This document shows, piece by piece, positions 1,502-47,652 of a stretch of 64,000 bases of DNA. How positions within the stretch are numbered: position 1 is the first letter of the stretch; each line of letters opens with the position of its first letter. Source of the stretch: an uncultured Candidatus Saccharibacteria bacterium (GTDB taxonomy: Bacteria > Patescibacteriota > Minisyncoccia > Phycocordibacterales > DATDWN01); NCBI GenBank assembly GCA_964616425.1, contig CAZTQY010000003.1:47402-111401 (forward strand). Reading direction: 5' to 3'. A program made the position numbers and the translations under genes. Under the pieces are notes generated by a model that was not told where the DNA came from, made no database searches, and saw only the letters and a list, made by a program, of their open reading frames with translations.

Positions 1502-4273
1502 ATGAGTATAACAGTCACAAGGCATGATGGTAAAAAAGAACCTTTCAATGCCGATAAAATTAATCGTTCTATAGAAAGAGCATGTTATGGATTGTTCGAT
1601 CCAGTCTCAAAAGTGACTCAAATTGCGACTGAAACTCAACTCACTCTCTATGATGGAATCACAACTGATGAAATGGATCAGGCGACTATCAACGCTGCAG
1701 TTCAAAATATAAAAGATGACATCGAATACGATATTGTCGCAAAAAGACTCCTACTTAAAACTCTGTATAGACAAGTTATAAAGGATTTTCATCCTGGGGA
1801 CGAATCTGAAGTTTTTGCAGGTAAACATAGAAAGAGTTTTGTTGATTTTATAGAGACAGGAGTTGCGAATGGAAAACTTCACCCAGAAATGAAGGCAAAG
1901 TTTAACCTAGATGAACTGGCTAATACACTAAGATTGGAAAGAGATGAGTTGTTTCAATACGCTGGACTAGATGGACTCATAAACCGATATTTAATAAAAG
2001 ATATAAATCAAAAACCAATAGAAGTTCCTCAGTATTTCTTTATGCGAATCGCAATGGGTCTTTCATATAACGAAAGCAATCCAACTGAAATGGCAAAAAA
2101 GTTCTACAATAAAATGTCTAGATTGGAGTATGTTGCCGGCGGTTCTACAAACCTAGCTGCAGGAACTATTAACCCAGCGCTATCAAATTGTTATCTTTTG
2201 GAGATTCAAGATAACATGAACCACATTGCTAAATCTGTATCTGACGTTATGCTTCTATCAAAAGGCTCAGGTGGAATAGGTGCTTCTGTTACAAAACTTC
2301 GTGCTTCAGGTTCTCCACTTAGAAAATATGGAGGTACATCCACAGGACCAACACCATTTGCAAAAATAATCGATACTGCTATACGTGCTATTCAGAGAGG
2401 GGGAAAGAAAAAAGGTGCACTTTGTTTTTATATGGAAAATTGGCATATTGATTTTCCAGAATTTCTTGATTGGAAGAAGAATAATGGTGATGACTATATG
2501 AGAATGAGAACTGCAAACACTGCTGTTTATCTTTCTGACGAGTTTATGAAAAGAGTTTCTGCTGGTGATGATTGGTACATGTTTGATCCAGCTGAAACAG
2601 AAGATCTAAATGAACTTTACGGTGAAGCTTTTTCAAAGAGATATGCAGAATATGTTGAAATGGCAAACTCTGGAAAAATGAGAGTGTTTAAGAAAGCTCC
2701 GGCTACAGAACAATACAGACAAATTTTAACAGAGCTTCAGAGTTCATCTCATCCTTGGTTAGTCTGGAAAGATTCAATTAACCTTCGTGCTCTAAATAAC
2801 AATACAGGTACTATTCATATGAGTAACTTGTGTACAGAAATCTGTCTGCCACAAGATAAAGATAACGTTGCTGTTTGTAACCTCGCGTCTCTTAACCTTG
2901 CAGCTCATATAAAGAACAAAGAAGTAAATTGGGCTAGATTGGAAGAGTCTGTTCGTCTAGCCGTAAGACAACTCGATAATCTTATTGATATCAATGTTCT
3001 ACCTATCCCAGAGGCAGCAAAATCAGATAGTGAGAATCGAGCTGTAGGTTTGGGTGTGATGGGATTTTCAGATACGATAGAGCAACTTGGTATGTCATAT
3101 GATTCTCCTCATGCTTGGGATTTTGCTGACAGGATATTTGAATTTGTTTCTTATATGGCAATCGATGAGTCAGCTAATTTGGCACAAGAGCGGGGTAGTT
3201 ATGCAAACTTTCAAGGTTCTGAGTGGTCAAAGGGTAAAGTTCCAATCGACACACTTTCTACATTGGAAGCCGGCAGAGGCAAACCGCTAACAGTTTCTAA
3301 AGTTAGTAAACACAAGGGTCTGAACTGGGATGTGCTTCGTGCAAAGGTTTCAAAAGGGATAAGAAATGCAACACTAATGGCTGTAGCACCAAACGCGAAC
3401 ATTGGATTGGTTGCTGCAACAACTCCAGGAATAGATGCTAGGTTTGCTCAAGTATTTTCTAGAAATAAAATTTCTGGTAAATATCTTGATATAAATCACA
3501 ACCTCGTAAAGGATTTGATAAACCTTGGATTGTGGGATGATGTAAAAGAACAGATTATTGAAAACCAAGGAGATATTGCTGAAATCGCTCAAATACCTCA
3601 ACACATAAAAGACATATATAAAACTTCTTTCACAACATCACCATTTGCTTATATAGAAGTTGCTGCTCGTGCACAGAAATGGGTAGATCAGGCTTTATCT
3701 AGAAACATGTATCTTGAAACTAGAGATATAGATGAGACAATGAAGATATACAGTACTGCCTGGGAAAAGGGTCTCAAGTCAACATACTATCTCCACATGA
3801 AGCCTCGACATACAGCTGAACAGTCAACTACAAATGTGAACAAGGCAGCAAAGATAGGAAAAGTTGGATTCGGTGCGTTGAATTTCAGCAACTCAAATGC
3901 TTTTGCTTCTCCACTTCAAAAATCTTTTAGTGTTGTAAACCCAAGCCAGGTTGTTGCTAGTGAGCCTTCGATTAGTGAATCTGCTATAAAACAAGCAAAA
4001 GAGGATGCTATATCTAACATAACATTGGAAGAGGAAATATTAGTTTCTACTTCAAAGGCTGTTGAAGAAATTTTACCTAAAAATAATGTTGAGCCTAGTT
4101 TTGAGCCATTACAAAAGTCTATATTAGATCAGAATAAACCTGAGCTAGTTGCACAAATTCAAAAAAACGAATATAAATCACTTGAGCAGGTAAACAATAA
4201 TATTAAGAAATACAATATCATTGCTCCTGAAGATCCAGCTGATAGTGATAACATCTGTATTGCTTGTCAGTAA
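1502..4273 (+). CDS. nrdA: Ribonucleoside-diphosphate reductase alpha subunit (class I) with N-terminal ATP-cone and long C-terminal low-complexity linker ending in a Cys pair
   Basis: ATP-cone at the N-terminus, catalytic motifs (NLCTEI, PxAxxS-like), C-terminal CIACQ. Confidence 0.9.
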   Translation: MSITVTRHDGKKEPFNADKINRSIERACYGLFDPVSKVTQIATETQLTLYDGITTDEMDQATINAAVQNIKDDIEYDIVAKRLLLKTLYRQVIKDFHPGDESEVFAGKHRKSFVDFIETGVANGKLHPEMKAKFNLDELANTLRLERDELFQYAGLDGLINRYLIKDINQKPIEVPQYFFMRIAMGLSYNESNPTEMAKKFYNKMSRLEYVAGGSTNLAAGTINPALSNCYLLEIQDNMNHIAKSVSDVMLLSKGSGGIGASVTKLRASGSPLRKYGGTSTGPTPFAKIIDTAIRAIQRGGKKKGALCFYMENWHIDFPEFLDWKKNNGDDYMRMRTANTAVYLSDEFMKRVSAGDDWYMFDPAETEDLNELYGEAFSKRYAEYVEMANSGKMRVFKKAPATEQYRQILTELQSSSHPWLVWKDSINLRALNNNTGTIHMSNLCTEICLPQDKDNVAVCNLASLNLAAHIKNKEVNWARLEESVRLAVRQLDNLIDINVLPIPEAAKSDSENRAVGLGVMGFSDTIEQLGMSYDSPHAWDFADRIFEFVSYMAIDESANLAQERGSYANFQGSEWSKGKVPIDTLSTLEAGRGKPLTVSKVSKHKGLNWDVLRAKVSKGIRNATLMAVAPNANIGLVAATTPGIDARFAQVFSRNKISGKYLDINHNLVKDLINLGLWDDVKEQIIENQGDIAEIAQIPQHIKDIYKTSFTTSPFAYIEVAARAQKWVDQALSRNMYLETRDIDETMKIYSTAWEKGLKSTYYLHMKPRHTAEQSTTNVNKAAKIGKVGFGALNFSNSNAFASPLQKSFSVVNPSQVVASEPSISESAIKQAKEDAISNITLEEEILVSTSKAVEEILPKNNVEPSFEPLQKSILDQNKPELVAQIQKNEYKSLEQVNNNIKKYNIIAPEDPADSDNICIACQ

Positions 4274-6071: not shown

Positions 6072-7112
6072 ATGGCATTTTTCAGTAAAACAAAAAAAGT
6101 TCGTGTTGCAATAAACGGTTTCGGTAGAATTGGCAGACAATTTCTGAAAGAGAGTTGGGATAATGAAAGTCTAGAAGTGGTTGCAGTTAACGATCTAGGA
6201 AGTGTCGATAATATGGCGTACCTTTTGAAATACGATACGGTTTATAAAACATGGAAGCATGATGTGAAAGTAGACGGTGGAAACCTTGTAATAGACGGTA
6301 GAACAGTAAAATTTGTTTCTGAAAAAGAGCCAACAAAACTTCCTTGGGGAGAGCTTGCAGTTGATGTTGTTGTTGAGTCTACAGGACTTTTCACTTCATA
6401 CGACAAAGCCTCTGTTCATTTAACTGCTGGTGCAAAGAAAGTAGTTATCTCAGCTCCTTCAAAAGGTGGAGACGGAAGTGTGAAAGGTGAAACTATACTC
6501 ATGGGTGTAAACGAGGAAAAGTTCGGTACATGTGATGTTACTTCAAATGCGTCATGTACAACAAACGCTGCTTCGCCACTTATTGCTATTTTGGATGAAA
6601 ACATTGGTATTGAAAAAGCAGTTCTGAACACTGTTCATGGATACACAGCGTCACAAGCACTAGTTGATGGTCCGTCTAAAAAAGATTTGAGAGAGGGAAG
6701 AGCAGCCGCACAGAACATCGTGCCTTCTTCTACAGGAGCAGCTATTGCGGTAACACAGGCATTCACGAAACTAGAAGGTTTGTTTGATGGTATTTCTATC
6801 AGAGTTCCTGTTCCAGCTGGTTCTATTGTGGATGTAACTTTTATTTCAAAGAAAAATACAACTGCAGAGGAAGTGAACAGTGTATTGCGAGCAGCTGCAG
6901 CAAGTGATAGATGGAAAAATATTTTCTCAGCTACAGATGAGGAACTAGTATCATCAGACATTCTCGGTAGTCATTATGGTTCTATCGCAGACCTCAAAAT
7001 GACTCGTGTTGTCGGAGGAAACTTGATAAAGGTTATGGCGTGGTATGACAATGAGGCGGGGTATACGAACATGCTGATTGACCACGTGATAAAAACTGGT
7101 AAAACAATATAA
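6072..7112 (+). CDS. gap: Glyceraldehyde-3-phosphate dehydrogenase
   Basis: NGFGRIGR Rossmann motif and the SCTTNA active-site motif. Confidence 0.95.
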   Translation: MAFFSKTKKVRVAINGFGRIGRQFLKESWDNESLEVVAVNDLGSVDNMAYLLKYDTVYKTWKHDVKVDGGNLVIDGRTVKFVSEKEPTKLPWGELAVDVVVESTGLFTSYDKASVHLTAGAKKVVISAPSKGGDGSVKGETILMGVNEEKFGTCDVTSNASCTTNAASPLIAILDENIGIEKAVLNTVHGYTASQALVDGPSKKDLREGRAAAQNIVPSSTGAAIAVTQAFTKLEGLFDGISIRVPVPAGSIVDVTFISKKNTTAEEVNSVLRAAAASDRWKNIFSATDEELVSSDILGSHYGSIADLKMTRVVGGNLIKVMAWYDNEAGYTNMLIDHVIKTGKTI

Positions 7113-7230
7113 ATTCCAAATTTGGCGAACTCCTCGTTCCCAAATTAAAAATATTCGTCACCTTAGCACTAACTAAGGCTCCTCATCTTTTTAATTTCTC
7201 ACGTCGGATTTCATCCAAATTGTGAAATTT
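7113..7230. mobile_element. MITE-like repeat, family alpha copy 1, with terminal inverted repeats and an internal conserved hairpin
   Basis: Starts immediately after the gap stop. TIRs ttccaaatttggcgaa / ttcatccaaattgtgaa. About 90% identical to 39165-39325. Confidence 0.45.
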
Positions 7231-7290
7231 TGATTTTGGAGTTGTTGAATACTTTATATCTATATACCACAGATTTAGTATAATTAAATT

Positions 7291-9393: not shown

Positions 9394-9464
9394 TGCGAAC
9401 TTCGAACTTCACACAGTTTTGAAAGTTTTAAGTTTTCAATCCGAATTGTGTTAAAATAATTTAA

Positions 9465-21794: not shown

Positions 21795-23042
21795 TTACCT
21801 CCAGGTTGTGTTTATTTTAAAGAGGGCATTGAAGGCCGCTCGTATTATCCAGATAGGTGCAATAAACATATACAAAGATAGGTAATAAATCAAATCCATA
21901 CCCAAATCGAGTTTACCTTCTGACATTCTTTTGGAAATAACAATAAACGTAATAGTTCCGATAGCTGTAGCAAATCCCAACAAAGTAAGTATCTGAGTAT
22001 TCAAATAAAATAAATCAAAATGGATACTTGGCCAGCTCAAGTTCCATCCAACAGTGCTAACAACTTTATATTGGTTGAAAATAGCTCTGATAAAACTCAA
22101 GACAGAAACACTAGAAACAAATACTACAGAAACAATAGATATGGCTGCCATAGGTAAAACAAGCATTCCTACATTTCCGTATTTTCTTTTGAAAAACATA
22201 TAGCGATAGTCCTTTGCGTTTTGAATAAAGCCATGAGACCAACGAACTCTTTGCTTTAGGAGTTTTCGAACAGTGTTTGGTGGAACAGTATAAACAAATG
22301 CATTGTGGGCATGAACTATTTTAAATCCATTTTCCTGCATTCTGAGGGCGATCTCTATGTCCTCAGTGTTGTGTGCATGCCTGTATGGTCCAAGTTTGTC
22401 GAATACGTCTCGTCTAAAAATAGAGAATGGTCCAGGTGTTATATATATAGCGTTCATGTATTGGAACATCTTCCTTGTGAATATTCCAAAGCCATACTCT
22501 ATTTTCTGGAGTAGTTGGAGTATGGATTTTGGTTCCCAAAGTTTAATAGATGGAGCCACCGCCATAGTCTCCTTGTCCTGGAAGTAATATACGATTTTCT
22601 TTAGTGTATCTTTGTGAACATATGAGTCAGCGTCTAGACAACCAACTAGTTCAGTACTAAGTTTTGATAATCCATAATTTAGTGCAGTATATTTACCTCC
22701 ATTTTTCTTTGTGTGGAGTTCAATCTGAGGGTGGTTTTTAAATTTTTGTACAACTTCCCATGTGTTGTCTGTGGAACCATCATCCACTATCATTATTTTC
22801 AGTTTATCCTTTGGGTAGTCCAAGTTGAGTATAGAGTGTATAGTTTTTCCAACTGTTCTCTCTTCATTCCAGCAAGGTACGATAACAGTTACTGTCGGGT
22901 ATTTTTTGACTCCTTGCGCGACAAGCGCCTCCTCAGCCTCGATATTTTTTTTATTTGCAAAGTATGTAATAAGCAAAAAAACTTCAAAATTTAATGAAAT
23001 AAAGAGAAATACATATGTAATTGAGTTTGTTAGGTTGTACAT
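21795..23042 (-). CDS. Family 2 glycosyltransferase, processive type (QxxRW)
   Basis: VPCWNEE, DDGSTD, QRVRW motifs and C-terminal TM helices. Confidence 0.85.
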   Translation of the reverse strand: MYNLTNSITYVFLFISLNFEVFLLITYFANKKNIEAEEALVAQGVKKYPTVTVIVPCWNEERTVGKTIHSILNLDYPKDKLKIMIVDDGSTDNTWEVVQKFKNHPQIELHTKKNGGKYTALNYGLSKLSTELVGCLDADSYVHKDTLKKIVYYFQDKETMAVAPSIKLWEPKSILQLLQKIEYGFGIFTRKMFQYMNAIYITPGPFSIFRRDVFDKLGPYRHAHNTEDIEIALRMQENGFKIVHAHNAFVYTVPPNTVRKLLKQRVRWSHGFIQNAKDYRYMFFKRKYGNVGMLVLPMAAISIVSVVFVSSVSVLSFIRAIFNQYKVVSTVGWNLSWPSIHFDLFYLNTQILTLLGFATAIGTITFIVISKRMSEGKLDLGMDLIYYLSLYMFIAPIWIIRAAFNALFKINTTWR

Positions 23043-24226
23043 TAGCGTATTGTGGCTTGGTATGCAGATTTCGTTACTTCTTCAAGCTTTTTGTGTAAAA
23101 AGTCTACATCTTCAGAGGTTAAGGTTCTATTAAGAGATCTGTATGTTACTCGGTACGCATAGCTTACTTTTCCTTCACCAAACTTTGCAGCATTTTCATA
23201 TTTATCTAGTAGCTCTACCTGCTCAACAAGTCCAGGAGCATTTTCTCGAACTAGGTCGAAATAGTCGTTAGGTAGAAAGTCATTTGTTACAACAAAAGAA
23301 ATATCTCTTACTACAGGAGGGAACTTTGAAACCTCTACGAACTTTTGTCCAAGTTTCAGCTGTTTTGTCACTCTCTCGTCGTCAGACCATAGCAGTCGGA
23401 TATCTGGTAGTTCCATAGATATGATAGCTAGTCTCTCCAATCCAAACCCGAATGCCCAACCATTGTAGACGTTAGAGTCCACTCCAAGTTTCTCTAGAAC
23501 ACTACCCTGAACAACACCTGCACCGAGTACCTCTACCCACTGCCCGTCTTTGTCCACTTCCATCTCTAGGCTGTCGTGCGTATAAGGGAATGTATCTGGA
23601 TTAAATCTATATTTTATTTCTTTGCCGAACACAGACTGTGCAACTTCGATCAAAACATCTTTGAGGTCGTCTTGATTTATTTCCTTCTCAGACTTTTTGC
23701 AGAGGTATAGTCCATCTACCTGGTGGAAGATGTTCATGTGTCTTCGATCGATCTCATCCTTTCGGTAAACTTTTCCGTGACAGATAACGGCCATGTCGAG
23801 ACCCTTTGCCATTTTTTCTTTTATTTCAGGTCTGTTGAAGTAGTACCACCACATAACTGTTGTATGTGTTCGGAGAATATAGTCTTGGTTTACATAGTAT
23901 GTGTCTGACTTGCTTCGAGCAGGGTGACTAGCAGGGAAGTCAAAGAGGTCAAAAGTCTGAACCATAGGTACTATCTCTGGGATAGTTATGACATCGAACT
24001 TTTTGAAAGTGTCGAGTGCCTTTACTCGGTCTGCTATTTCTTTGATAGGGCTACCGTCTTTTCGAGAAAGGTCATCCATTGCTAAATAGCGCTTTATTCG
24101 AGCGCTCTCTGCATCTGTTCTCTCCTCAAGCTCTTTGCGTAGAGTTTGGTCGTTACTGTCTACTTCAATGTACTCTTTTCGATCGAGTTCTGGAGAGGAG
24201 TAGAGGTCCTTCATACTGTTTGACAT
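23042..24226 (-). CDS. pheS: Phenylalanyl-tRNA synthetase alpha subunit
   Basis: Class II motifs 2 and 3 (..FHQVDG.., GFGLERLAII). Confidence 0.85.
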   Translation of the reverse strand: MSNSMKDLYSSPELDRKEYIEVDSNDQTLRKELEERTDAESARIKRYLAMDDLSRKDGSPIKEIADRVKALDTFKKFDVITIPEIVPMVQTFDLFDFPASHPARSKSDTYYVNQDYILRTHTTVMWWYYFNRPEIKEKMAKGLDMAVICHGKVYRKDEIDRRHMNIFHQVDGLYLCKKSEKEINQDDLKDVLIEVAQSVFGKEIKYRFNPDTFPYTHDSLEMEVDKDGQWVEVLGAGVVQGSVLEKLGVDSNVYNGWAFGFGLERLAIISMELPDIRLLWSDDERVTKQLKLGQKFVEVSKFPPVVRDISFVVTNDFLPNDYFDLVRENAPGLVEQVELLDKYENAAKFGEGKVSYAYRVTYRSLNRTLTSEDVDFLHKKLEEVTKSAYQATIR

Positions 24227-24276
24227 ATGTCGAAACTATAGCGAAAAATAGGCGTTTTGTAAAATTTTTGTAATCA

Positions 24277-24415
24277 AAACAAAACTTTTTTCAGACCGCT
24301 CGCTTTTCCAGCGAAAAGCTTGCTTTGTCCTCGGTCGCAACTTGTCAATGAGCCGAGCAAAGCTCGGACTTTGACAGGACCATGCTTGCGACCTGTGGGG
24401 TCATCAAAAAGTTTT
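24277..24415. ncRNA. Candidate structured RNA element gamma, copy A (strand undetermined)
   Basis: Shares cttttccagcgaaaag, tgtcctc, ttgtcaatgagc and ttgaca.ag.ccatgct with 44630-44750. Two helices covary: ggtcgcaa/ttgcgacc and cgagc/gctcg. Confidence 0.4.
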
Positions 24416-24435
24416 GTTTTGAGTAAAATTTAGTA

Positions 24436-24490
24436 AACAAAAAACCCCGCACAGAACCGGGCGCGAACTGCGCGGGGTTCTGTGTGGGTG
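24436..24490 (-). terminator. Strong bidirectional GC hairpin terminator for cassette D gene
   Basis: cacagaacc..ggttctgtgcgggg plus T6 on the minus strand. Confidence 0.55.
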
Positions 24491-24503
24491 GGGATTGATG
24501 AGA

Positions 24504-24896
24504 TTACAGAATGATGGCTGTGACTTTCTCACTTCCACCAACCATCTCAACAACTTCTTCAACTGGGTTGCGTCTGGTGTGGGCGGTCTTGGGTATCGGC
24601 TTGACCTCGAAGGTCTTGCCGTGCTTTTCGACAAGTTCCGCCAACCATACCTCCCAGTTGTCTGGGTTGACCTGTGAAGCATCGATATTCGCGAGTTGAG
24701 GGAACTGTGAAAGAAGAAATGGCTTACACTCGTCCATCACTCGGGGGACTTGGTGAGTGAACACCACATCTCCAGTCATGTAGTTCAGGATGTCGTAGTA
24801 AGCTTCCACGCCCCGTGGAGCAACCAAATAACCAGTTGTGACAGTCAGGATATCGCCCAGATGGAAACTTTTCATCGTTTTCGCCTCGTGGAACAT
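24504..24896 (-). CDS. High-GC cassette D: hypothetical protein (phage-like flavour)
   Basis: Clean 130-aa ORF, GC about 52%, with its own terminator. Confidence 0.5.
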   Translation of the reverse strand: MFHEAKTMKSFHLGDILTVTTGYLVAPRGVEAYYDILNYMTGDVVFTHQVPRVMDECKPFLLSQFPQLANIDASQVNPDNWEVWLAELVEKHGKTFEVKPIPKTAHTRRNPVEEVVEMVGGSEKVTAIIL

Positions 24897-25044
24897 GGGG
24901 CATAAATGCCCAAAATCAACTGCGCGAATTATGGCATATTTATTACCTATTTGTCAATATATAATTTACCCCAAAATTCATCACTTTTTCCTTGTGATGA
25001 CATCCAAATTTTGCTATAATTACTCGCATAACAAATCACAAAAT

Positions 25045-35434: not shown

Positions 35435-35476
35435 ATTGTGTGAAGGAGTCTCTACCTTCTCATTTAATTTTACTCA

Positions 35477-35788
35477 ACACGCATAAATCGTTGCTACGAT
35501 TTTGCTTTTCTCGGCTCGTCAGCCTGCGAAGGTCTCGTAAAATGAAATGAGTCAACGAGACTCTTAGGTGACACATTCTTGTTTTTGTGTTAGTGTATTC
35601 TCAATTATTATTAAATGTAAGATTAGTGTTTTTTGAGACTTCGCAGATAATTTAGAAAACAACGACGAAGATAAAGTAAGCCCGAAGCTTGTTTGAGCAA
35701 AGCGAGTTTGCGAAAGGGCTACATATCTAGGAGATTGTTTTCTTAGATTATTGAGATAAGCGAAATCGTACCAACGATTTACGCGGTT
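35477..35788. mobile_element. MITE-like non-coding element (about 312 bp) with 36-bp imperfect terminal inverted repeats in the nusB-rnc spacer
   Basis: Left TIR acacgcataaatcgttgctacgattttgcttttctc matches the reverse complement of the right TIR gagataagcgaaatcgtaccaacgatttacgcggtt at 30/36. No ORF inside. The mismatches are not RNA-compensatory. Confidence 0.45.
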
Positions 35789-39164: not shown

Positions 39165-39325
39165 ACTTCCAAATTTGGCGAATACCACAAGAGTACTTCT
39201 TGTTTTATAAACAAAACAAAGTCGCTCCTCGTTCCCAAATTAAAAATATTCGTCACCTTACAGGTGTAAGGCTCCTCATCTTTTTAATTTCTCACGTCGG
39301 ATTTCATTCAAATTATGAAAGTTTG
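39165..39325. mobile_element. MITE-like repeat, family alpha copy 2 (with about a 40-bp internal insertion relative to copy 1)
   Basis: Starts directly after the smc stop. Same TIRs and the same tcgtcacctta..taaggctcctcatctttttaatttctcacgtcggatttcat core as 7113-7230. Confidence 0.45.
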
Positions 39326-39333
39326 GTGTACTA

Positions 39334-39363
39334 TTGACTATATAGTCAAGATAGTGGTATAAT
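39334..39363 (+). promoter_or_regulatory. Promoter TTGACT-18-TATAAT for cassette H
   Basis: ttgactatatagtcaagatagtggtataat. Confidence 0.5.
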
Positions 39364-40135: not shown

Positions 40136-40280
40136 TATAAATTAAAGTAGTGTTATTCCAAGACTCTCGACAATCGAGGTCTATAGTGATTGCTTCGAAC
40201 TTCACTCAGTTTATGAAAGTTTGAGAGGAATAATTTGACTTTTGTAAAAATTGTGTTAGATTCTTTGGTGGAGAAATTAT

Positions 40281-42540: not shown

Positions 42541-42990
42541 ATGTTAAAAATACGATTACAGAGAGTAGGAAGAACTCACGAGCCATCATTTCGGCTTGTT
42601 TTGACTGATTCAAAGAATGCAACAAAGAGTGGAAAGTACGTAGAGTCTCTAGGTAGCTTTGATGCTAGAAGAGGAGAAAAGGCAGAGTTTAAAGCTGATA
42701 GAATAAAAGAGTTGATAGGAAAAGGAGCTCAACCTACAGATACAGTTCACAATCTACTTGTTTCAAAAAAGATAATAGAAGGAAAGAAGATTAATGTTCT
42801 TCCGTTGAAAAAAGCTATAGTGAAAGATGTTCCTGCAGAAGCGGTATCTGCTCCTGTTGCAGAGACACCTGCACCAGCTCAAGCTGAACCAGTTGTTGAG
42901 GCAACTCCAGAGGTAGCTCCAGAAGCCCCTGCACCTGCTCCTGCTGAAGTACCTTCAGCTGAAAATCCTACTCCAGAAGCAACTGCATAA
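42541..42990 (+). CDS. rpsP: Ribosomal protein S16 with Ala/Pro/Glu-rich C-terminal extension
   Basis: MLKIRLQRVGRTHEPSFRLV motif. Confidence 0.9.
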   Translation: MLKIRLQRVGRTHEPSFRLVLTDSKNATKSGKYVESLGSFDARRGEKAEFKADRIKELIGKGAQPTDTVHNLLVSKKIIEGKKINVLPLKKAIVKDVPAEAVSAPVAETPAPAQAEPVVEATPEVAPEAPAPAPAEVPSAENPTPEATA

Positions 42991-43062: not shown

Positions 43063-43380
43063 ATGGAAAAAGACGTAGAATTTCTTGATTTTGTTATAAA
43101 AGCTTTGGTTGAGAAACCAGAAGACGTAAAAATAGTTCGAACCGTAGATGAGATGGGTGTGCTTATGACTTTGGATGTTAACAAAGACGACATGGGTAAA
43201 ATCATTGGTCGTGAAGGTAACACAGCAAAGGCGATTCGAACACTTCTTCGAGTTGTTGGAATGAAAAATAACTCAAGAGTAAATCTAAAGATAAATGAAC
43301 CAGCTGATAGTGGCCGAGATATGAAACCAACTAGTGCCACAAAGTCTCTTGATGAGGCAATGTCTGATCTAAATCTTTAA
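43063..43380 (+). CDS. KH-domain RNA-binding protein (KhpA/YlqC-like)
   Basis: KIIGREGNTAKAIRTLL (GxxG loop of a KH domain). Confidence 0.8.
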   Translation: MEKDVEFLDFVIKALVEKPEDVKIVRTVDEMGVLMTLDVNKDDMGKIIGREGNTAKAIRTLLRVVGMKNNSRVNLKINEPADSGRDMKPTSATKSLDEAMSDLNL

Positions 43381-43401: not shown

Positions 43402-43432
43402 AAAAGCACCCTAACTGGGTGTTTTTATTTTG
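43402..43432 (+). terminator. Terminator after the KH gene
   Basis: gcaccctaactgggtgt followed by ttttatttt. Confidence 0.5.
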
Positions 43433-43484
43433 GTAAAACTGTGTTATAATAACCGGAGAAATTTAACCCCGGACAGGAGGGCGG

Positions 43485-43889
43485 ATGGCTATGACTGTCG
43501 TCATCTCGAGTAGGGTCCTAAAGTGGACATTGGTGTTGGTTTTCGCCATGTTCGTTGGCAGTTTGGTACTGCCGACACCTCAGGAACTGGTCAGAGATTT
43601 CCAGATCCAACTGCTCATCGAAGAGCAGAACAAGATCTGTGGAATGCTCGAGGCTGAACTTGAGGCAAGCATCCACCAGCTGTACGGAGTTCCTCAGGAT
43701 CTGATTTTGCCCAAGTCAGTCCAGGAGAACTTTCGTCTGAGGTACGCATCATCCAAGGCTTTTACGGAAGAAGGTGCGCGAAGCCTCGACGATGCAATTC
43801 TGGCCTGTACGGTCAGAACCAAATGGCAAAGTCTGGTTGATAGGATAAGTGAGGGAGCTTTCCCTCATAGATACCAGTCAGCTGACTGA
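43485..43889 (+). CDS. High-GC cassette I: hypothetical protein with N-terminal TM/signal segment
   Basis: Extended -10 tgttataat upstream, SD ggaggg, and a strong terminator. Confidence 0.5.
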   Translation: MAMTVVISSRVLKWTLVLVFAMFVGSLVLPTPQELVRDFQIQLLIEEQNKICGMLEAELEASIHQLYGVPQDLILPKSVQENFRLRYASSKAFTEEGARSLDDAILACTVRTKWQSLVDRISEGAFPHRYQSAD

Positions 43890-43899
43890 CACGGGGGAT

Positions 43900-43932
43900 C
43901 AGGGGAGGCCACAGTGGCCTCCCTTTCTCATA
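43900..43932 (+). terminator. Terminator of cassette I
   Basis: ggggaggccacagtggcctccc followed by tttctcat. Confidence 0.6.
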
Positions 43933-43965
43933 TACAAAAATAGAAAATTGTGGTATAAATTCGGA

Positions 43966-44619
43966 ATGAATTTTCATATCATAAGTCTTTTTCCTAACGC
44001 ATTCGACTCATATCTAAATGAGTCTATTATTTCTCGTGCAATAGAGGATAAGAAAATTAAAGTCAGTTTTTATAACCCTCGTGATTATTCTGATGATAAA
44101 TGGAAAAGGGTTGATCAGAAACCATATGCTGGTGGCCCAGGTATGGTTATTCAGGCTCTGCCTGTCATCAAAGCAATACAGAAAGCTTTGATGAAGTTAA
44201 AAGTTAAAAGTAAAAAGTCGAAAGTAAAGATTATTTTTTTCTCTCCTGGTGGGAAGGAGTTTAATACAGACTATGCAAAAAAATCTGCAAAAAAATACAC
44301 TGATATTATTTTTGTTTGCGGGAGATATGAAGGTATTGATGCTCGAGTAAAAAAAGTTTTTAAAATGGAAGATGTATCTATTGGAAATTATGTTTTAACT
44401 GGTGGCGAGTTGCCAGCTATGGTGTTGATCGATTCTATTTCTCGACAGGTTGAAGGAGTGCTCGGTAACTTTAACTCTCTAGAGGAGTCGCGTGTTTCTA
44501 GTCACGACTCATACACAAGGCCAGAAGTTTTTGAATATAAAAAGAAAAAATACAGAGTGCCAAAGGTTTTGCTTTCAGGAAATCATAAAGAGATTGAGGA
44601 GTGGAAAAGAACTAGATAG
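43966..44619 (+). CDS. trmD: tRNA (guanine37-N1)-methyltransferase
   Basis: SPOUT knot motifs: ISLFPN, GGPGMV, YEGIDARV, NYVLTGGELPAMVLIDS. Confidence 0.9.
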   Translation: MNFHIISLFPNAFDSYLNESIISRAIEDKKIKVSFYNPRDYSDDKWKRVDQKPYAGGPGMVIQALPVIKAIQKALMKLKVKSKKSKVKIIFFSPGGKEFNTDYAKKSAKKYTDIIFVCGRYEGIDARVKKVFKMEDVSIGNYVLTGGELPAMVLIDSISRQVEGVLGNFNSLEESRVSSHDSYTRPEVFEYKKKKYRVPKVLLSGNHKEIEEWKRTR

Positions 44620-44629
44620 AATTTTTTAG

Positions 44630-44750
44630 AGACAAAAACTTTTCCAGCGAAAAGTTTTTTCTGTCCTCAGCCTTGATTTGTCAATGAGCTCTGATTACAG
44701 AGTCGTTGACAAAGCCATGCTCAAGGCTTGCGGATGCTCTAAAAAACGTC
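44630..44750. ncRNA. Candidate structured RNA element gamma, copy B
   Basis: Shares the conserved blocks of copy A. The long-range helix covaries (agccttga/tcaaggct), as does the internal hairpin (ctctg/cagag). Confidence 0.4.
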
Positions 44751-44848
44751 TATCTAGTTCTTTGTGTTTTGGGTAACAAAAAACACCACTCCGACCCAAG
44801 GGGGAAAATTTCTCCCACCTTGTGTCGACGCGGCGTCGTGTGTACTGG

Positions 44849-45223
44849 CTAGACTGCGGCGAGCTGCTGTCCGTGAGCTGTCTGCGGATGCTCGCTCCGG
44901 TTCTCGTTGAAGAGCTCTTCGTACCGGCGGTGCATTTCCGCCTGCTCCTCGAACACGGCGATGAAGGCCGCCAAGGCCTTGGACTGATTCGCCTTGTGTT
45001 CTTCGCTCGATTCCATGTGTGAGCGAACGACGCCGGACTTGAGCATGTCGTTGATGGTCGTGGGTCCCTTGTCGCGCTTGACGATCTTGATGATCTTCAC
45101 CCCGCTCAGGACGGCCGCTGCCATCATGAGTTCTTCCTCGTAGGCCATGCAGGGATGTTCCTGCAACAGGCACTGAACCGACTTACCTTTCAACTTCTCG
45201 TACGTGCCGATCGTTTCCGACAT
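44849..45223 (-). CDS. High-GC cassette J: hypothetical 124-aa protein
   Basis: SD ggagg at 8 nt on the minus strand, GC about 58%. Confidence 0.5.
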   Translation of the reverse strand: MSETIGTYEKLKGKSVQCLLQEHPCMAYEEELMMAAAVLSGVKIIKIVKRDKGPTTINDMLKSGVVRSHMESSEEHKANQSKALAAFIAVFEEQAEMHRRYEELFNENRSEHPQTAHGQQLAAV

Positions 45224-45313
45224 GTGTCTGCCTCCAGGTGAGAATCTTTACATTATATTTTTTTACTGTCAAATACTTTTCCACCTTTTTGTATTGCTGG
45301 TACAATAACTAAC

Positions 45314-47038
45314 ATGACTCAAGCTGAAGCTCTCGATATTTTAAAAATGGGCAAAAATGTTTTTCTCACTGGTCCTGCTGGTAGTGGAAAGACTCATGTT
45401 GTAAATGCGTATGTAAAGTATCTCAAGGAACATGCTGTTGATGTTGCAGTGACAGCATCTACTGGTATCGCAGCTACACACATAGGTGGACAAACTATAC
45501 ACTCATGGTCAGGACTCGGAATAAAAGATACTTTGACGGATTATGACATTGAAAATTTGATGGAGAGGCAGTACCTATATAAAAGATTTGAGAAAACAAA
45601 AGTTTTGATAATCGACGAGGTTTCAATGCTTCATCATTTTCGTCTCGACCTGATTGAGTGGATATGTCGTCAGATGAAACGTAACGAGTCACCGTTCGGA
45701 GGAATGCAAATTATTCTTTGTGGAGATTTTTTCCAGCTTCCTCCAGTTTCCCGCAGACGTTTTGATGGGGTGGATTTTATTGAACCTATAGAGTCTGAGT
45801 TCGCATTCAAAGCAGAAAGTTTTTTGAATTCAAAATTTACTATTTGCTACTTGTCTGAACAGCATAGACAAAAAGATAATACTTATTTATCAATTTTAAA
45901 TCAGATTCGTCAAAATAGAGTTAGTCAGAAAACTATAGATCTTTTGAAAACTCGTTTAAATATGGATCCAGATACGGGTAATGTTGTAACTCGTTTATAT
46001 ACTCACAATATTGATGTTGACGAGATAAACAAGAAACATTTGGGTCTGATAGATGGAAGTGAAAAAGTATATAGAATGAACTCAAAGGGGGCTCCATCTC
46101 TTGTTGAGTCTTTGAAAAAAAGTTGTCTTTCTCCAGAAGAATTAGTTTTAAAAAAGGGAGCAAGAGTGATGTTTACAAAAAATCAGCCTGAAGGTGGGTA
46201 TGTAAATGGAACATTGGGAGTTGTAAAAGACTTTAGCTCGTTTGGTGATCCTATTGTAGAAACAAATAACGGCATGACATTTCATGTATCACCTCAGCCA
46301 TGGAAGATAGAAGAAGAAGGAAAAGTTAAAGCAGAAATCGAACAACTCCCGCTCCGTCTAGCTTGGGCTATTACTGTTCACAAAAGTCAGGGAATGTCTC
46401 TAGATGCAATGGAAGTGGATTTATCAAAATCGTTTGTGAAAGGTATGGGTTACGTAGCTTTGTCACGAGTGCGATCACTAGATGGTATGAAGTTGCTTGG
46501 TTTCAATGACATGTCGCTTGAGATTGATATGGAGGTTTTGGAAATGGATCAGAGTTTTCAGGAAAAGTCAGATGAGGCAGTAGATAAACTAAAATCTATG
46601 GATAGAAAAGATATTGAGGATAAGCAGAAAAAGTTTATCGAAAGTATCGAGCCAGAAGAAAAAGTAAAAATTAAAGGAAAGCAACCGCTGAAAGCGAGCA
46701 GTGGTCGTATGACCGGAAAAGAACAAAAGAAAAGTACCCACGAAATTACTCGTGAAATGTTAGAGAAACAAATGTCTCTTGCGATGATTGCAGATAAAAG
46801 GGGAATCAAACAAGAAACAGTTGTCTCTCATGTTGAGGATTTGGTTAGAGAAAACAACTGTCCAGATATTGATTATCTAAAAAAAGAGTTGAAGCGAAGT
46901 GAGCTAGAGGAGATACTATCTGCTTTCGAAGAGCTCGACACTGATACGTTGTCATCAGTCTATAATTTACTTCAAAAAAGAAAAAAGAAGCCAAGTTATT
47001 TGAAAATTAGAATTGCTCGACTTTTTCTTGGTAAGTAA
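45314..47038 (+). CDS. Pif1-family ATP-dependent DNA helicase with C-terminal HTH-like extension
   Basis: Walker A GPAGSGKTH, Pif1 signature CGDFFQLPPV, Walker B LIIDEVSM. Confidence 0.8.
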   Translation: MTQAEALDILKMGKNVFLTGPAGSGKTHVVNAYVKYLKEHAVDVAVTASTGIAATHIGGQTIHSWSGLGIKDTLTDYDIENLMERQYLYKRFEKTKVLIIDEVSMLHHFRLDLIEWICRQMKRNESPFGGMQIILCGDFFQLPPVSRRRFDGVDFIEPIESEFAFKAESFLNSKFTICYLSEQHRQKDNTYLSILNQIRQNRVSQKTIDLLKTRLNMDPDTGNVVTRLYTHNIDVDEINKKHLGLIDGSEKVYRMNSKGAPSLVESLKKSCLSPEELVLKKGARVMFTKNQPEGGYVNGTLGVVKDFSSFGDPIVETNNGMTFHVSPQPWKIEEEGKVKAEIEQLPLRLAWAITVHKSQGMSLDAMEVDLSKSFVKGMGYVALSRVRSLDGMKLLGFNDMSLEIDMEVLEMDQSFQEKSDEAVDKLKSMDRKDIEDKQKKFIESIEPEEKVKIKGKQPLKASSGRMTGKEQKKSTHEITREMLEKQMSLAMIADKRGIKQETVVSHVEDLVRENNCPDIDYLKKELKRSELEEILSAFEELDTDTLSSVYNLLQKRKKKPSYLKIRIARLFLGK

Positions 47039-47100: not shown

Positions 47101-47652
47101 GTGGCACATATAGATGAGGCAAGAGCAATTGAATACGTCAGGAATATCACTGTTTCGTATCTGAAGCGCAACGGTGTGCCCTGGCAAGTGTGGGATGATG
47201 CCATCCAGGAAGCACACCTCAAGATGGTCGTTCTCCTGCCCAAGTTCGATCCGACTCTGTCGTCGCTCAATACGTACCTGTACGTGCCGGTCATCGGGGC
47301 AGTCATTGATTTGCTTCGGCGGGCCGAGCACTACACGCGGGGTAAGAACCCGCGAACGATGCTTTCGATCGAGGATTGCAGAGAGCGAGTCAGCTCGTAC
47401 TTCCTTGATCGGGTGACAAGGTGTCGGGAAGAAAATCCTGAGCAGAGGTACTTCATGGACGTTGAGTGGCCGGAAATCGCCGCTCAAATGTTGGCTCGGT
47501 TGGAGCCGAGAGAACGGACTGTCGTCGAGATGTTGTACTTCCGCGGCATGTGCCAATCTGAGGTAGCCGCTCAAGTTGGCCTCTCTCAAAGCCGAGTTGC
47601 TCAGCTCAAGGCCTGCGCCTTCAAACACATGCAGGAAGCAGTTGCTAGTTAG
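47101..47652 (+). CDS. High-GC cassette K: sigma-70 family RNA polymerase sigma factor (small, ECF-like; GTG start)
   Basis: Region 2-like DAIQEAHLKMVVLLPKFDP..YLYVPVIGAVIDLLRR; region 4 HTH LEPRERTVVEMLYFRGMCQSEVAAQVGLSQSRVAQL. SD ggaggg. Confidence 0.7.
   Translation: MAHIDEARAIEYVRNITVSYLKRNGVPWQVWDDAIQEAHLKMVVLLPKFDPTLSSLNTYLYVPVIGAVIDLLRRAEHYTRGKNPRTMLSIEDCRERVSSYFLDRVTRCREENPEQRYFMDVEWPEIAAQMLARLEPRERTVVEMLYFRGMCQSEVAAQVGLSQSRVAQLKACAFKHMQEAVAS

Follow-up and report, generated by a model that had tools for sequence, protein, structure and literature searches.

We studied a 64,000-nucleotide stretch of DNA (hereafter the window) from an uncultured Candidatus Saccharibacteria bacterium and, within it, an intergenic element designated gamma, whose copy B lies directly after trmD and before a high-GC open reading frame (ORF), cassette J, as an earlier note made from the sequence alone had placed it. 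Copy B was confirmed to be real and strongly folded, and to be one copy of a repeat family, present here as a lineage-specific insertion. On the best-supported description, gamma is a new family of ornate palindromic repeats spanning the Paceibacteria, whose behaviour is akin to that of the REP/REPIN, ERIC and Correia elements. The earlier note had regarded copy B as the occupant of the slot usually taken by rplS; comparison of the sequences of related loci (denoted by L and a number) indicates instead that the gene order never had rplS at this position and that copy B is an insertion confined to a sublineage.

Minimum free energy (MFE) folding delimited the whole hairpin of copy B to 158 nt on the plus strand (44606..44763). 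Folded as RNA it reached -72.5 kcal/mol (z -9.2, with 0 of 200 shuffles equally good) and folded as DNA -48.1 kcal/mol (z -10.6), and its covariance-model score was 137.7 bits over 44620-44751. The core folds of the two window copies, A and B, gave z-scores of -3.9 and -6.2 against shuffles. The boundaries first proposed (44630-44750) were too small, and the start was not 11 nt past the trmD stop: helix P1 begins at 44622 and the outer stem at 44606, within trmD. The 5' arm of the outer stem and P1 (44606..44631, plus strand) contains AAAGAACTAGATAGA, pairing with 44749-44763, and TTTTTTAGAG, pairing with 44737-44746. AAAGAACTAGATAGA is at the same time the 3' end of trmD, with the TAG stop (44617-44619) and the four-plus codons before it. 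The 3' arm of P1 and the outer stem (44737..44763, plus strand) is the inverted complement of the trmD 3' end, its segment TCTATCTAGTTCTTT being the exact inverted complement of AAAGAACTAGATAGA. This outer-stem arm is specific to the locus: in L027 and L031 the same core bears unrelated arms.

Inside these arms, the P2 hairpin (44634..44659, plus strand) has 11 bp in copy B, 7 bp being conserved in the family, and a CAGC loop (consensus C-N-G-C, with a C-G closing pair); among 89 distinct copies, double compensatory changes were found at six of its seven model pairs. The conserved junction UGUCCUC (44662..44668, plus strand), the positions of which were set by the search patterns, pairs through its UCC with GGA at 44732-44734 to form P3, where the partners of the junction alternate between A and G. 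P4, the strongest covarying helix of the family, has its 5' strand AGCCTTGA at 44669..44676 (plus strand), paired with TCAAGGCT at 44721-44728; between copy B and the near-identical core of L031 it differs only at two pairs, both fully compensated. P5 (TTGTCAA/TTGACAA; 44678..44711, plus strand) encloses an internal loop, UGAG/UCG, and a variable apical hairpin, P6 (44689-44702). The invariance of P5 in our sample is no independent test, as its sequence was demanded by the search patterns. An asymmetric conserved bulge, CCAUGCU (44715..44721, plus strand; family consensus ACC(A/G)(U/A/-)GCU), was kept in 30 of the 32 genome copies, though it lay outside the first search pattern. The claim that copies A and B are the same structured element was upheld by the identical blocks CTTTTCCAGCGAAAAG, TGTCCTC, TTGTCAATGAGC, TTGACA and CCATGCT, and so was the claim that their helices covary, GGTCGCAA/TTGCGACC in copy A corresponding to AGCCTTGA/TCAAGGCT in copy B with full compensation.

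An exact pattern derived from copies A and B and run on the GTDB species genomes matched 32 loci, as compared with about 0.4 expected by chance according to our estimate, and a covariance model (R1) upheld 31 of the 32. These loci are almost all in metagenome-assembled genomes (MAGs) of Paceibacterota, Minisyncoccia, Zambryskibacteria or Parcubacteria, several per genome, the exact pattern alone finding at least four copies in several MAGs. A looser pattern led to 100 metagenome stretches, and R1 gave 66 matches in one set of metagenome loci and 18 in another, a few being weak. More than 110 distinct copies were confirmed in Paceibacteria/Parcubacteria genomes and metagenomes. The density in unbiased sequence was about one copy per 37 kb; by extrapolation, a genome of less than 1 Mb holds some 20 copies. 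Chance pattern matches, recognised by the lack of a model hit, were discarded; they comprised about 15-20 loci of the metagenome set of 100 as well as L030 (Clostridiales), L116 and L137. Two pattern scans of viral contigs returned 0 and 1 matches, the single one lying inside a coding sequence and attributed to chance. Searched at gathering thresholds with Rfam 15, the whole window returned a tRNA-Thr alone, and the 300-nt regions around both copies, searched at E-values up to 10, gave chance matches of the miRNA or snoRNA type, far below gathering; there was no gamma match to L19_leader, T-box, twister, twister-sister, pistol, hatchet, hammerhead, HDV-like, 6S, SRP or Y RNA. A full-text literature search on structured RNAs or repeats of Patescibacteria/Parcubacteria surfaced only unrelated TIGR-Tas papers and no gamma.

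Results of the alignment of the 89 distinct sequences showed 95.7% paired cells, against 78.9% in shuffles and at most 52% with the partners slid; 21 of the 29 pairs had changed on both sides, and the covariation score was 0.486 against 0.171. All this describes a core of about 110 nt with a three-way junction, atop an outer stem that is mostly locus-specific. The consensus of P1 is UUUUC-N-GAGAC ... GCUC-N-GAAAA, and the long arm consists of P3, P4, the invariant P5 (UUGUCAA/UUGACAA), the internal loop and the variable apical hairpin P6, with the conserved bulge ACCAUGCU on its 3' side. Median lengths are 173 nt for the whole hairpin (total element length about 160-175 nt) and 28 bp for the outer stem; in roughly 90% of copies the stem has at least about 16 bp. 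At its base it reads either G(C/U)AAAAU...AUUUU(G/A)C or a locus-specific sequence. One large subfamily keeps the terminal inverted arms AAAUCUCUUUCUCACC...GGCUCAACGAGAUUU at many different loci; the arms of the other copies are unique. Two further observations concern the stems and the arrangement of copies. A C.A mismatch recurs in many loci and genomes at the fifth pair outside the UUUU/AAAA run, in the extension of P1 (e.g. AACCUUUU / AAAAGAUU). Adjacent copies in opposite orientation were seen as convergent pairs in L017 (1700-1832, plus; 1905-2025, minus) and L073 (1085-1219, plus; 1252-1384, minus) and as a back-to-back pair in L106 (2329-2463, minus; 2869-3004, plus).

The gene order around trmD was compared in four relatives with TrmD 79-89% identical (L133-L136), which present RNase R, rpsP, KH, 0-2 small variable genes, trmD, 0-2 variable genes and PIF1, with no rimM, rplS or gamma at the trmD locus. 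The lack of rimM and rplS is therefore the ordinary gene order of the lineage, because these four loci lack both genes and lack gamma as well; the idea that rimM and rplS had been replaced by cassettes and the element finds no support in this comparison, nor does that of copy B filling an rplS slot. Absence of gamma from relatives with the same gene order had been named beforehand as telling against that view: it was found in these loci, and not in the closest relatives (L037 and L091), where gamma is present. In L133-L136, L037, L091 and L145 pif1 lies downstream of trmD, either at once or after small variable genes; in L135 it begins 7 nt after trmD. A tblastn search with the L19 proteins of E. 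coli and B. subtilis gave no match in the 64-kb window, while these queries did match an L19 in the unrelated locus L116, which served as positive control. For the absence of rimM the main ground is that the ORF between KH and trmD gave no Pfam match, as the RimM query had no positive control.

Empty and filled sites could be aligned at trmD. In L133 (Parcubacteria bacterium C7867-006, TrmD 89% identical) the site is empty, and the trmD end ...AAA TCT AAG TAA C is followed directly by AAAAAACACC..., i.e., the cassette terminator that lies to the right of copy B in the window. It is also empty in L145, where the TAA stop abuts the same cassette terminator and a cassette J 88% identical to ours is present. 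The site is filled in L037 and L091 (TrmD 91% and 97% identical, respectively). In L037 the native trmD end (WKLKSK*) is intact, the insert is flanked by a 5-bp direct repeat, (A/G)TAAC (GTAAC/ATAAC), and the native trmD end recurs, as its reverse complement, in the 3' arm TTATTTACTTTTTA. The window site has the right GTAAC and the flank as in L037; its last trmD codons are replaced (WKRTR*) and perfectly complementary to the 3' arm, and the left repeat is overwritten. The C-terminal tail of TrmD thus reads WKRTR* in the window against WKLKSK* in L037, L133 and L145, and the TrmD homologues range from 213 to 240 aa, a spread that fits a tail rewritten repeatedly. One stem arm is native flank and the other its inverted copy in L037 and in L027, in the latter, at the pheS locus, with opposite polarity: there AAAATTTA-GTAAAC, the native right flank, forms the outermost 3' arm, and the 5' arm is its inverted copy. 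The sequence AAAATTTA-GTAAAC also occurs between cassettes. A second polymorphic site was filled in L002, with a possible TAA repeat, and empty in L019.

As judged from these comparisons, the gamma family is both duplicative and under constraint: one core type is present at several loci, and retained copies can change more slowly than their coding flanks. The B-type core, from GAGAC to GCUC, is near-identical at trmD (window), pheS (L027, L086 and L001) and scpA-scpB (L031), and its outer stems are unrelated across these three places. Note that L031 and L133 belong to the same genome, in which the scpA-scpB site is filled and the trmD site empty. Different hairpins also occupy one locus in close relatives (copy A of the window versus L027; copy B versus L037). 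Orthologous copies were 94-99% identical against 73-91% for their flanks in the three informative pairs, namely L008/L023 (98% versus 89%), L018/L049 (97% versus 73-83%) and window copy A and its ortholog in L026 (94-95% versus 91% for the coding flank); little difference was found in other close pairs. Site occupancy is shared by species whose flanks are 66-80% identical, e.g. at rpsI-grpE in six loci.

With respect to the neighbouring genes, 54 of the 89 copies lie after a co-oriented ORF (of at least 80 codons) that ends 0-45 nt before P1, and in 15 of those 54 the stop codon is within the stem or at its very base. A convergent gene has its stop next to the copy in only 12 cases, 23 copies lie between two co-oriented genes, and 24 have the start of a divergent gene 30-95 nt upstream. 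The upstream genes, identified mostly by eye from their translations and in some cases by Pfam on window orthologs, include the housekeeping genes recA, dnaK, gyrA, rpoD, RNase J, prfA, rpsI, rpmB, ybeY, scpA, nusB, dnaE and fba; the downstream genes are unrelated or lie on the opposite strand. A motif, UAGUGGU(G)AUUUU or UAGUGCCA, adjoins the 3' base of the hairpin in many copies (e.g. L097, L020, L009, L042 and L013), is found on the 5' side in L027/L001, and in some copies pairs with an upstream (G/U)RCAC. It looks like the local extended -10 type of promoter, examples of which are GATAGTGGTATAAT at 39351 and TTGTGGTATAAAT before trmD. Judged against the empty site of L019, the motif in L002 appears to have come with the insertion. 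The 3' tail motif UAGUGGUGAUUUU was also weighed as an RNA 3' tail and as a Shine-Dalgarno (SD)-like or tRNA-like end, and turned out to be most like the TAGTGG/TGTGG-TATAAT extended -10 promoter.

The question of whether gamma acts as RNA or DNA was approached by counting non-Watson-Crick pairs. The core had 24 G.U against 30 A.C, leaving out one position with 22 U.G, and the outer stems had 28 G.U against 78 A.C/C.A, the latter figure being partly due to one recurrent C.A; as a control, eight tRNAs from gamma loci showed 9 G.U and 0 mismatches in 168 pairs. Such Watson-Crick strictness fits a structure at the DNA level, a structure needed on both strands, or arms re-templated from each other. 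The arguments for a plus-strand RNA are the co-oriented stops upstream and one P3 pair (U-A in 66 copies, U.G in 22). An attempted proof of plus-strand RNA, from the U-A/U.G alternation in P3 and the better plus-strand fold of the window copies, failed on the family-wide counts and energies, and the idea of a terminator was dropped, there being no U-tract asymmetry after the hairpin base.

In L123/L021 and L057 a tblastn screen for candidate partner proteins found Y1_Tnp (IS200/RAYT-like) proteins encoded 2-3 kb from gamma, with Pfam E-values of 2e-6 and 5e-12 and visible HUH and Y motifs. The gene lies at 2490-3191 in L123, at 38-559 in L057 and at about 6001-6705 in L138-L144. More than 5400 homologues were obtained at E 1e-10 or better; those with a named source are all from Paceibacterota/Parcubacteria, and some sources name them 'REP element-mobilizing transposase RayT'. 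The surrounding synteny is conserved in several (SodA, RAYT-like, Lactamase_B/ComEC-like, rpmB), and the gene looks like a domesticated single-copy gene. The RAYT-like protein is a lead only as a partner of gamma. RNase III (rnc) is encoded in the window itself.

The reading we prefer, at somewhat less than an even chance, is that gamma is a constrained gene-end hairpin module, spread by occasional insertion or conversion, with a stem grown by inverted copying of the flank. In one sublineage the hairpin was inserted precisely between the trmD stop and the neighbouring cassette terminator. On this reading gamma would be a REP/REPIN- or Correia-like element, spreading by occasional duplicative insertion or conversion. 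Template switching at the hairpin during replication may then copy one flank inverted and lengthen the palindrome, as the sequence pattern of the arms suggests. The element would be retained as a gene-end module, the 3' hairpin of the upstream transcript serving as an exonuclease barrier, a termination aid or an RNase III site; a role as DNA hairpin or cruciform may be an alternative or an addition. The TAGTGG-type promoter box often found next to the hairpin would serve the following transcription unit, and the invariant loop nucleotides would form a putative protein-binding site, one candidate binder being the RAYT-like Y1/HUH transposase homologue.

Several results weigh against this proposal. 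A clear target duplication was seen at one site only (L037), and the layout of gamma is the reverse of that of REPINs and miniature inverted-repeat transposable elements (MITEs), which have conserved arms and a variable middle. The 24 copies with a divergent upstream gene cannot be the 3' untranslated region of an upstream gene. The MFE of the whole hairpin averages 3.2 kcal/mol better on the minus strand, and there is no downstream excess of U tracts (maximum T in an 8-nt window 4.11 against 4.35 for the mirrored upstream A, p 0.45). As for the RAYT-like gene, no gamma flanks it directly in L123, L057 or L138-L144; L138 has two gamma copies 3-6 kb away from it, and L141-L144 have none within 6 kb. 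In addition, enzymes of the IS200/RAYT type, by Y1 transposition, leave no target duplication, and one gamma site shows one. A bolder version, which we consider rather unlikely, would make gamma the repeat partner of a domesticated RAYT-like Y1/HUH protein across Paceibacteria, i.e., a replicator of the REPIN-RAYT type in bacteria of the candidate phyla radiation, of new architecture, with a branched core recognised by the protein and a stem rebuilt at each site by inverted flank copying, which would routinely rewrite the stop codons and C-terminal tails of essential genes and supply gene-end hairpins and promoters.

Other explanations were weighed on the same observations. Gamma copies could be independent small RNA (sRNA) genes, transcribed either from a promoter of their own or together with the upstream mRNA, in which RNase III would cut the long stem and free a three-way-junction RNA of about 130 nt acting in trans with a protein, like multicopy sRNAs or Y RNAs. 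The conservation of loop and junction nucleotides across a class-level clade, a sequence constraint exceeding the needs of pairing, stems of a length (median 28 bp) that would suit the RNase III encoded in the window, the 24 copies without a co-oriented upstream gene, which would require a promoter of their own, and the TAGTGG-type box ahead of the L027/L001 copy would all agree with it. We nevertheless hold it improbable: G.U pairs are not favoured over mismatches, unlike in the tRNAs of the same loci, neither a conserved promoter at a fixed distance nor a terminator-like U tract was found, shortened variants lack the entire long arm, and copies are gained, lost and replaced between close relatives, which is unusual for a family of trans-acting RNA genes. 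Gamma could also be a purely selfish MITE, moved in trans by a DDE or other transposase without any host role and structured only as a by-product of its palindromic ends; its presence/absence polymorphism with a short target duplication containing TAA, the large subfamily with conserved terminal inverted arms AAAUCUCUUUCUCACC...GGCUCAACGAGAUUU at many loci and the finding of one core type at different loci of related genomes point in this direction. Such an origin is no more probable than that of sRNA genes, as retained copies changed more slowly than the adjacent coding sequence in copy A/L026, L008/L023 and L018/L049 and persist at orthologous sites in spite of a flank identity of about 70%, the copies within a genome are old and divergent with compensated helices and no recent burst, conservation is in the middle rather than at the ends, and about 1 Mb of loci showed no transposase whose ends match.

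A recombination site for the integration of high-GC ORFan cassettes, comparable to attC/attI folded as single-stranded DNA, was considered because a cassette terminator adjoins each of the two window copies at (G)GTAA(A)C|AAAAA and because in four relatives gamma A is followed by arrays of 1-3 different cassettes. Like gamma, integron attC sites adjoin or overlap the stop codon of a co-oriented ORF, keep structure rather than sequence and are strictly Watson-Crick, and they work as folded single-stranded DNA. The cassettes that adjoin trmD without gamma in L133 and L145 largely refute this proposal; many other window cassettes have no gamma, and elsewhere most gamma copies follow housekeeping genes with no cassette. 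Moreover, gamma has no L boxes or R''/R' boxes (RYYYAAC/GTTRRRY) and no nearby integrase, a tblastn search with IntI1 giving no match near any gamma and its sole match in the gamma-free L104. We regard it as very improbable, and give just as little credit to a cis-regulatory RNA of the neighbouring gene, such as a riboswitch, a ribosomal-protein leader (e.g. the L19 leader) or a self-cleaving ribozyme. Invariant unpaired nucleotides in a three-way junction recall aptamers and ribozymes, and the 23 copies between co-oriented genes would be suitably placed, but Rfam 15 gave no match at E-values as high as 10, G.U pairs are not tolerated, there is no consistent downstream gene, and copies A and B face convergent genes.

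Compared with known systems, the gene-end module that we prefer shares with REP/REPIN-RAYT that its copies are extragenic palindromes, present in tens at the 3' ends of genes, retained vertically for long, able to fold as single-stranded hairpins and accompanied by a RAYT-like gene in the genome. However, REPs are 20-40 nt long, with conserved arms and a GTAG-type foot, whereas gamma has a conserved 110-nt three-way-junction centre and locus-specific arms; the RAYT-like genes examined are not flanked by gamma, and one filled gamma site has the 5-bp target duplication. The Correia/nemis MITEs of Neisseria and the ERIC sequences of enterobacteria are likewise imperfect palindromes of 100-160 nt in transcribed intergenic DNA with TA-containing targets. 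They fold to long RNA hairpins and can bear outward promoters, and nemis hairpins are substrates of RNase III; a TAGTGG-type promoter box is often found 3' of gamma. Unlike gamma, they are conserved over their full length with terminal repeats and show no compensatory covariation among old copies, whereas gamma has a branched conserved core and variable arms and is class-wide in Patescibacteria. Gamma also resembles an intrinsic terminator in being a hairpin directly after a stop, between a transcription unit and the next promoter, but its stem is 3-5 times longer, it carries a 110-nt branched insert and there is no enrichment of U tracts downstream. Canonical short terminators do occur in the window, e.g. 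after the KH gene (about 43403-43433).

Patescibacteria have tiny, gene-dense genomes, whose non-coding DNA, transcript boundaries and mobile elements are almost unstudied. Gamma unites two unusual traits, a strict Watson-Crick covariation with invariant loops and stems that come from inverted copying of a gene end. If its partner protein and active strand were found, it would provide a handle on how transcription ends and restarts in these bacteria, or a new recombination system that recognises hairpins. The covariance model is useful to annotators, and accounts for odd variation in the C-terminal length of adjacent genes such as trmD.

At default filters the covariance model found exactly two full copies in the window, copy B and copy A (137.7 and 128.4 bits). 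The core of copy A occupies 24284..24416 on the plus strand and its whole hairpin about 24262 to 24438; it lies 58 nt upstream of a divergent pheS-like gene and abuts a cassette terminator, and like copy B it faces a convergent gene. A family member without the long arm, a mini-gamma, is located between nusB-NUDIX and rnc (35444..35566, plus strand); it was matched at 35467-35547 with the filters off only (22.6 bits, E 3e-4), and its predicted fold is a three-way junction (z -3.4). At the orthologous position of L007 the copy is a full gamma. Similar shortened copies, with the long arm missing, were seen in L006 (3519-3602) and L003 (3821-3941). The 394-aa protein encoded at 23042-24226 on the minus strand contains a class II PheRS core (tRNA-synt_2d) and an FDX-ACB domain, a layout that, by its predicted domains, is that of the monomeric mitochondrial-type PheRS and not of the bacterial alpha2-beta2 enzyme.

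The window has a background of about 39% GC with patches of about 500 bp at 50-54% GC. Around copy B the genes are rpsP (42541-42990), a KH protein of the KhpA type (43063-43380), cassette I, a high-GC ORF without a Pfam family (43485-43889), trmD (43966..44619, plus strand; Pfam tRNA_m1G_MT, E 1e-39), cassette J (44849..45223, minus strand) and a PIF1-type helicase (45314-47038). A protein 100% identical to the trmD product is present in the database. Cassette J, a convergent high-GC ORFan ORF of 124 aa without a Pfam family, had one homologue only among 5.8 billion proteins; it is a neighbour of copy B and lies outside the element. The right junction GGGTAAC, followed by an A-tract and a GC-rich hairpin, is the terminator of cassette J (44771..44843, minus strand). 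This segment is native flank, common to the empty sites, the same sequence being found directly 3' of the trmD stop in L133 and L145. In L037 and L091 an unrelated ORF occupies the promoter/terminator slot of cassette J.

The GC-rich cassette patches of the window are those at 43438-43944, 44771-45300 and 24433-24930 and about 12 others. Their high-GC ORFan cassettes each have a TTGACA-17-TATAAT promoter, an SD sequence and a GC-rich terminator, and in the slots compared (L026, L001, L027, L037, L091, L133 and L145) the ORF is swapped for an unrelated one while promoter and terminator stay constant. The arrays of 1-3 cassettes between gamma A and gyrB have a terminator repeat of about 60 nt in common. 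A second repeat of about 110 nt (7112-7232 and 39166-39325) is present in copies 95-100% identical, with a CCTTAG...CTAAGG hairpin and no Rfam match; the copy at 39166-39325 has a TAGTGGTATAAT promoter and a GC-rich cassette just downstream. A 33-nt repeat with 79% identity (CTTCGAACTTCAC.CAGTTT...) occurs at 9400-9432 and 40193-40225. Finally, an ECF-like sigma factor (Sigma70_r2, r4) is encoded on the plus strand in a GC-rich patch (47101-47652), overlapped by an antisense ORF of similar length.

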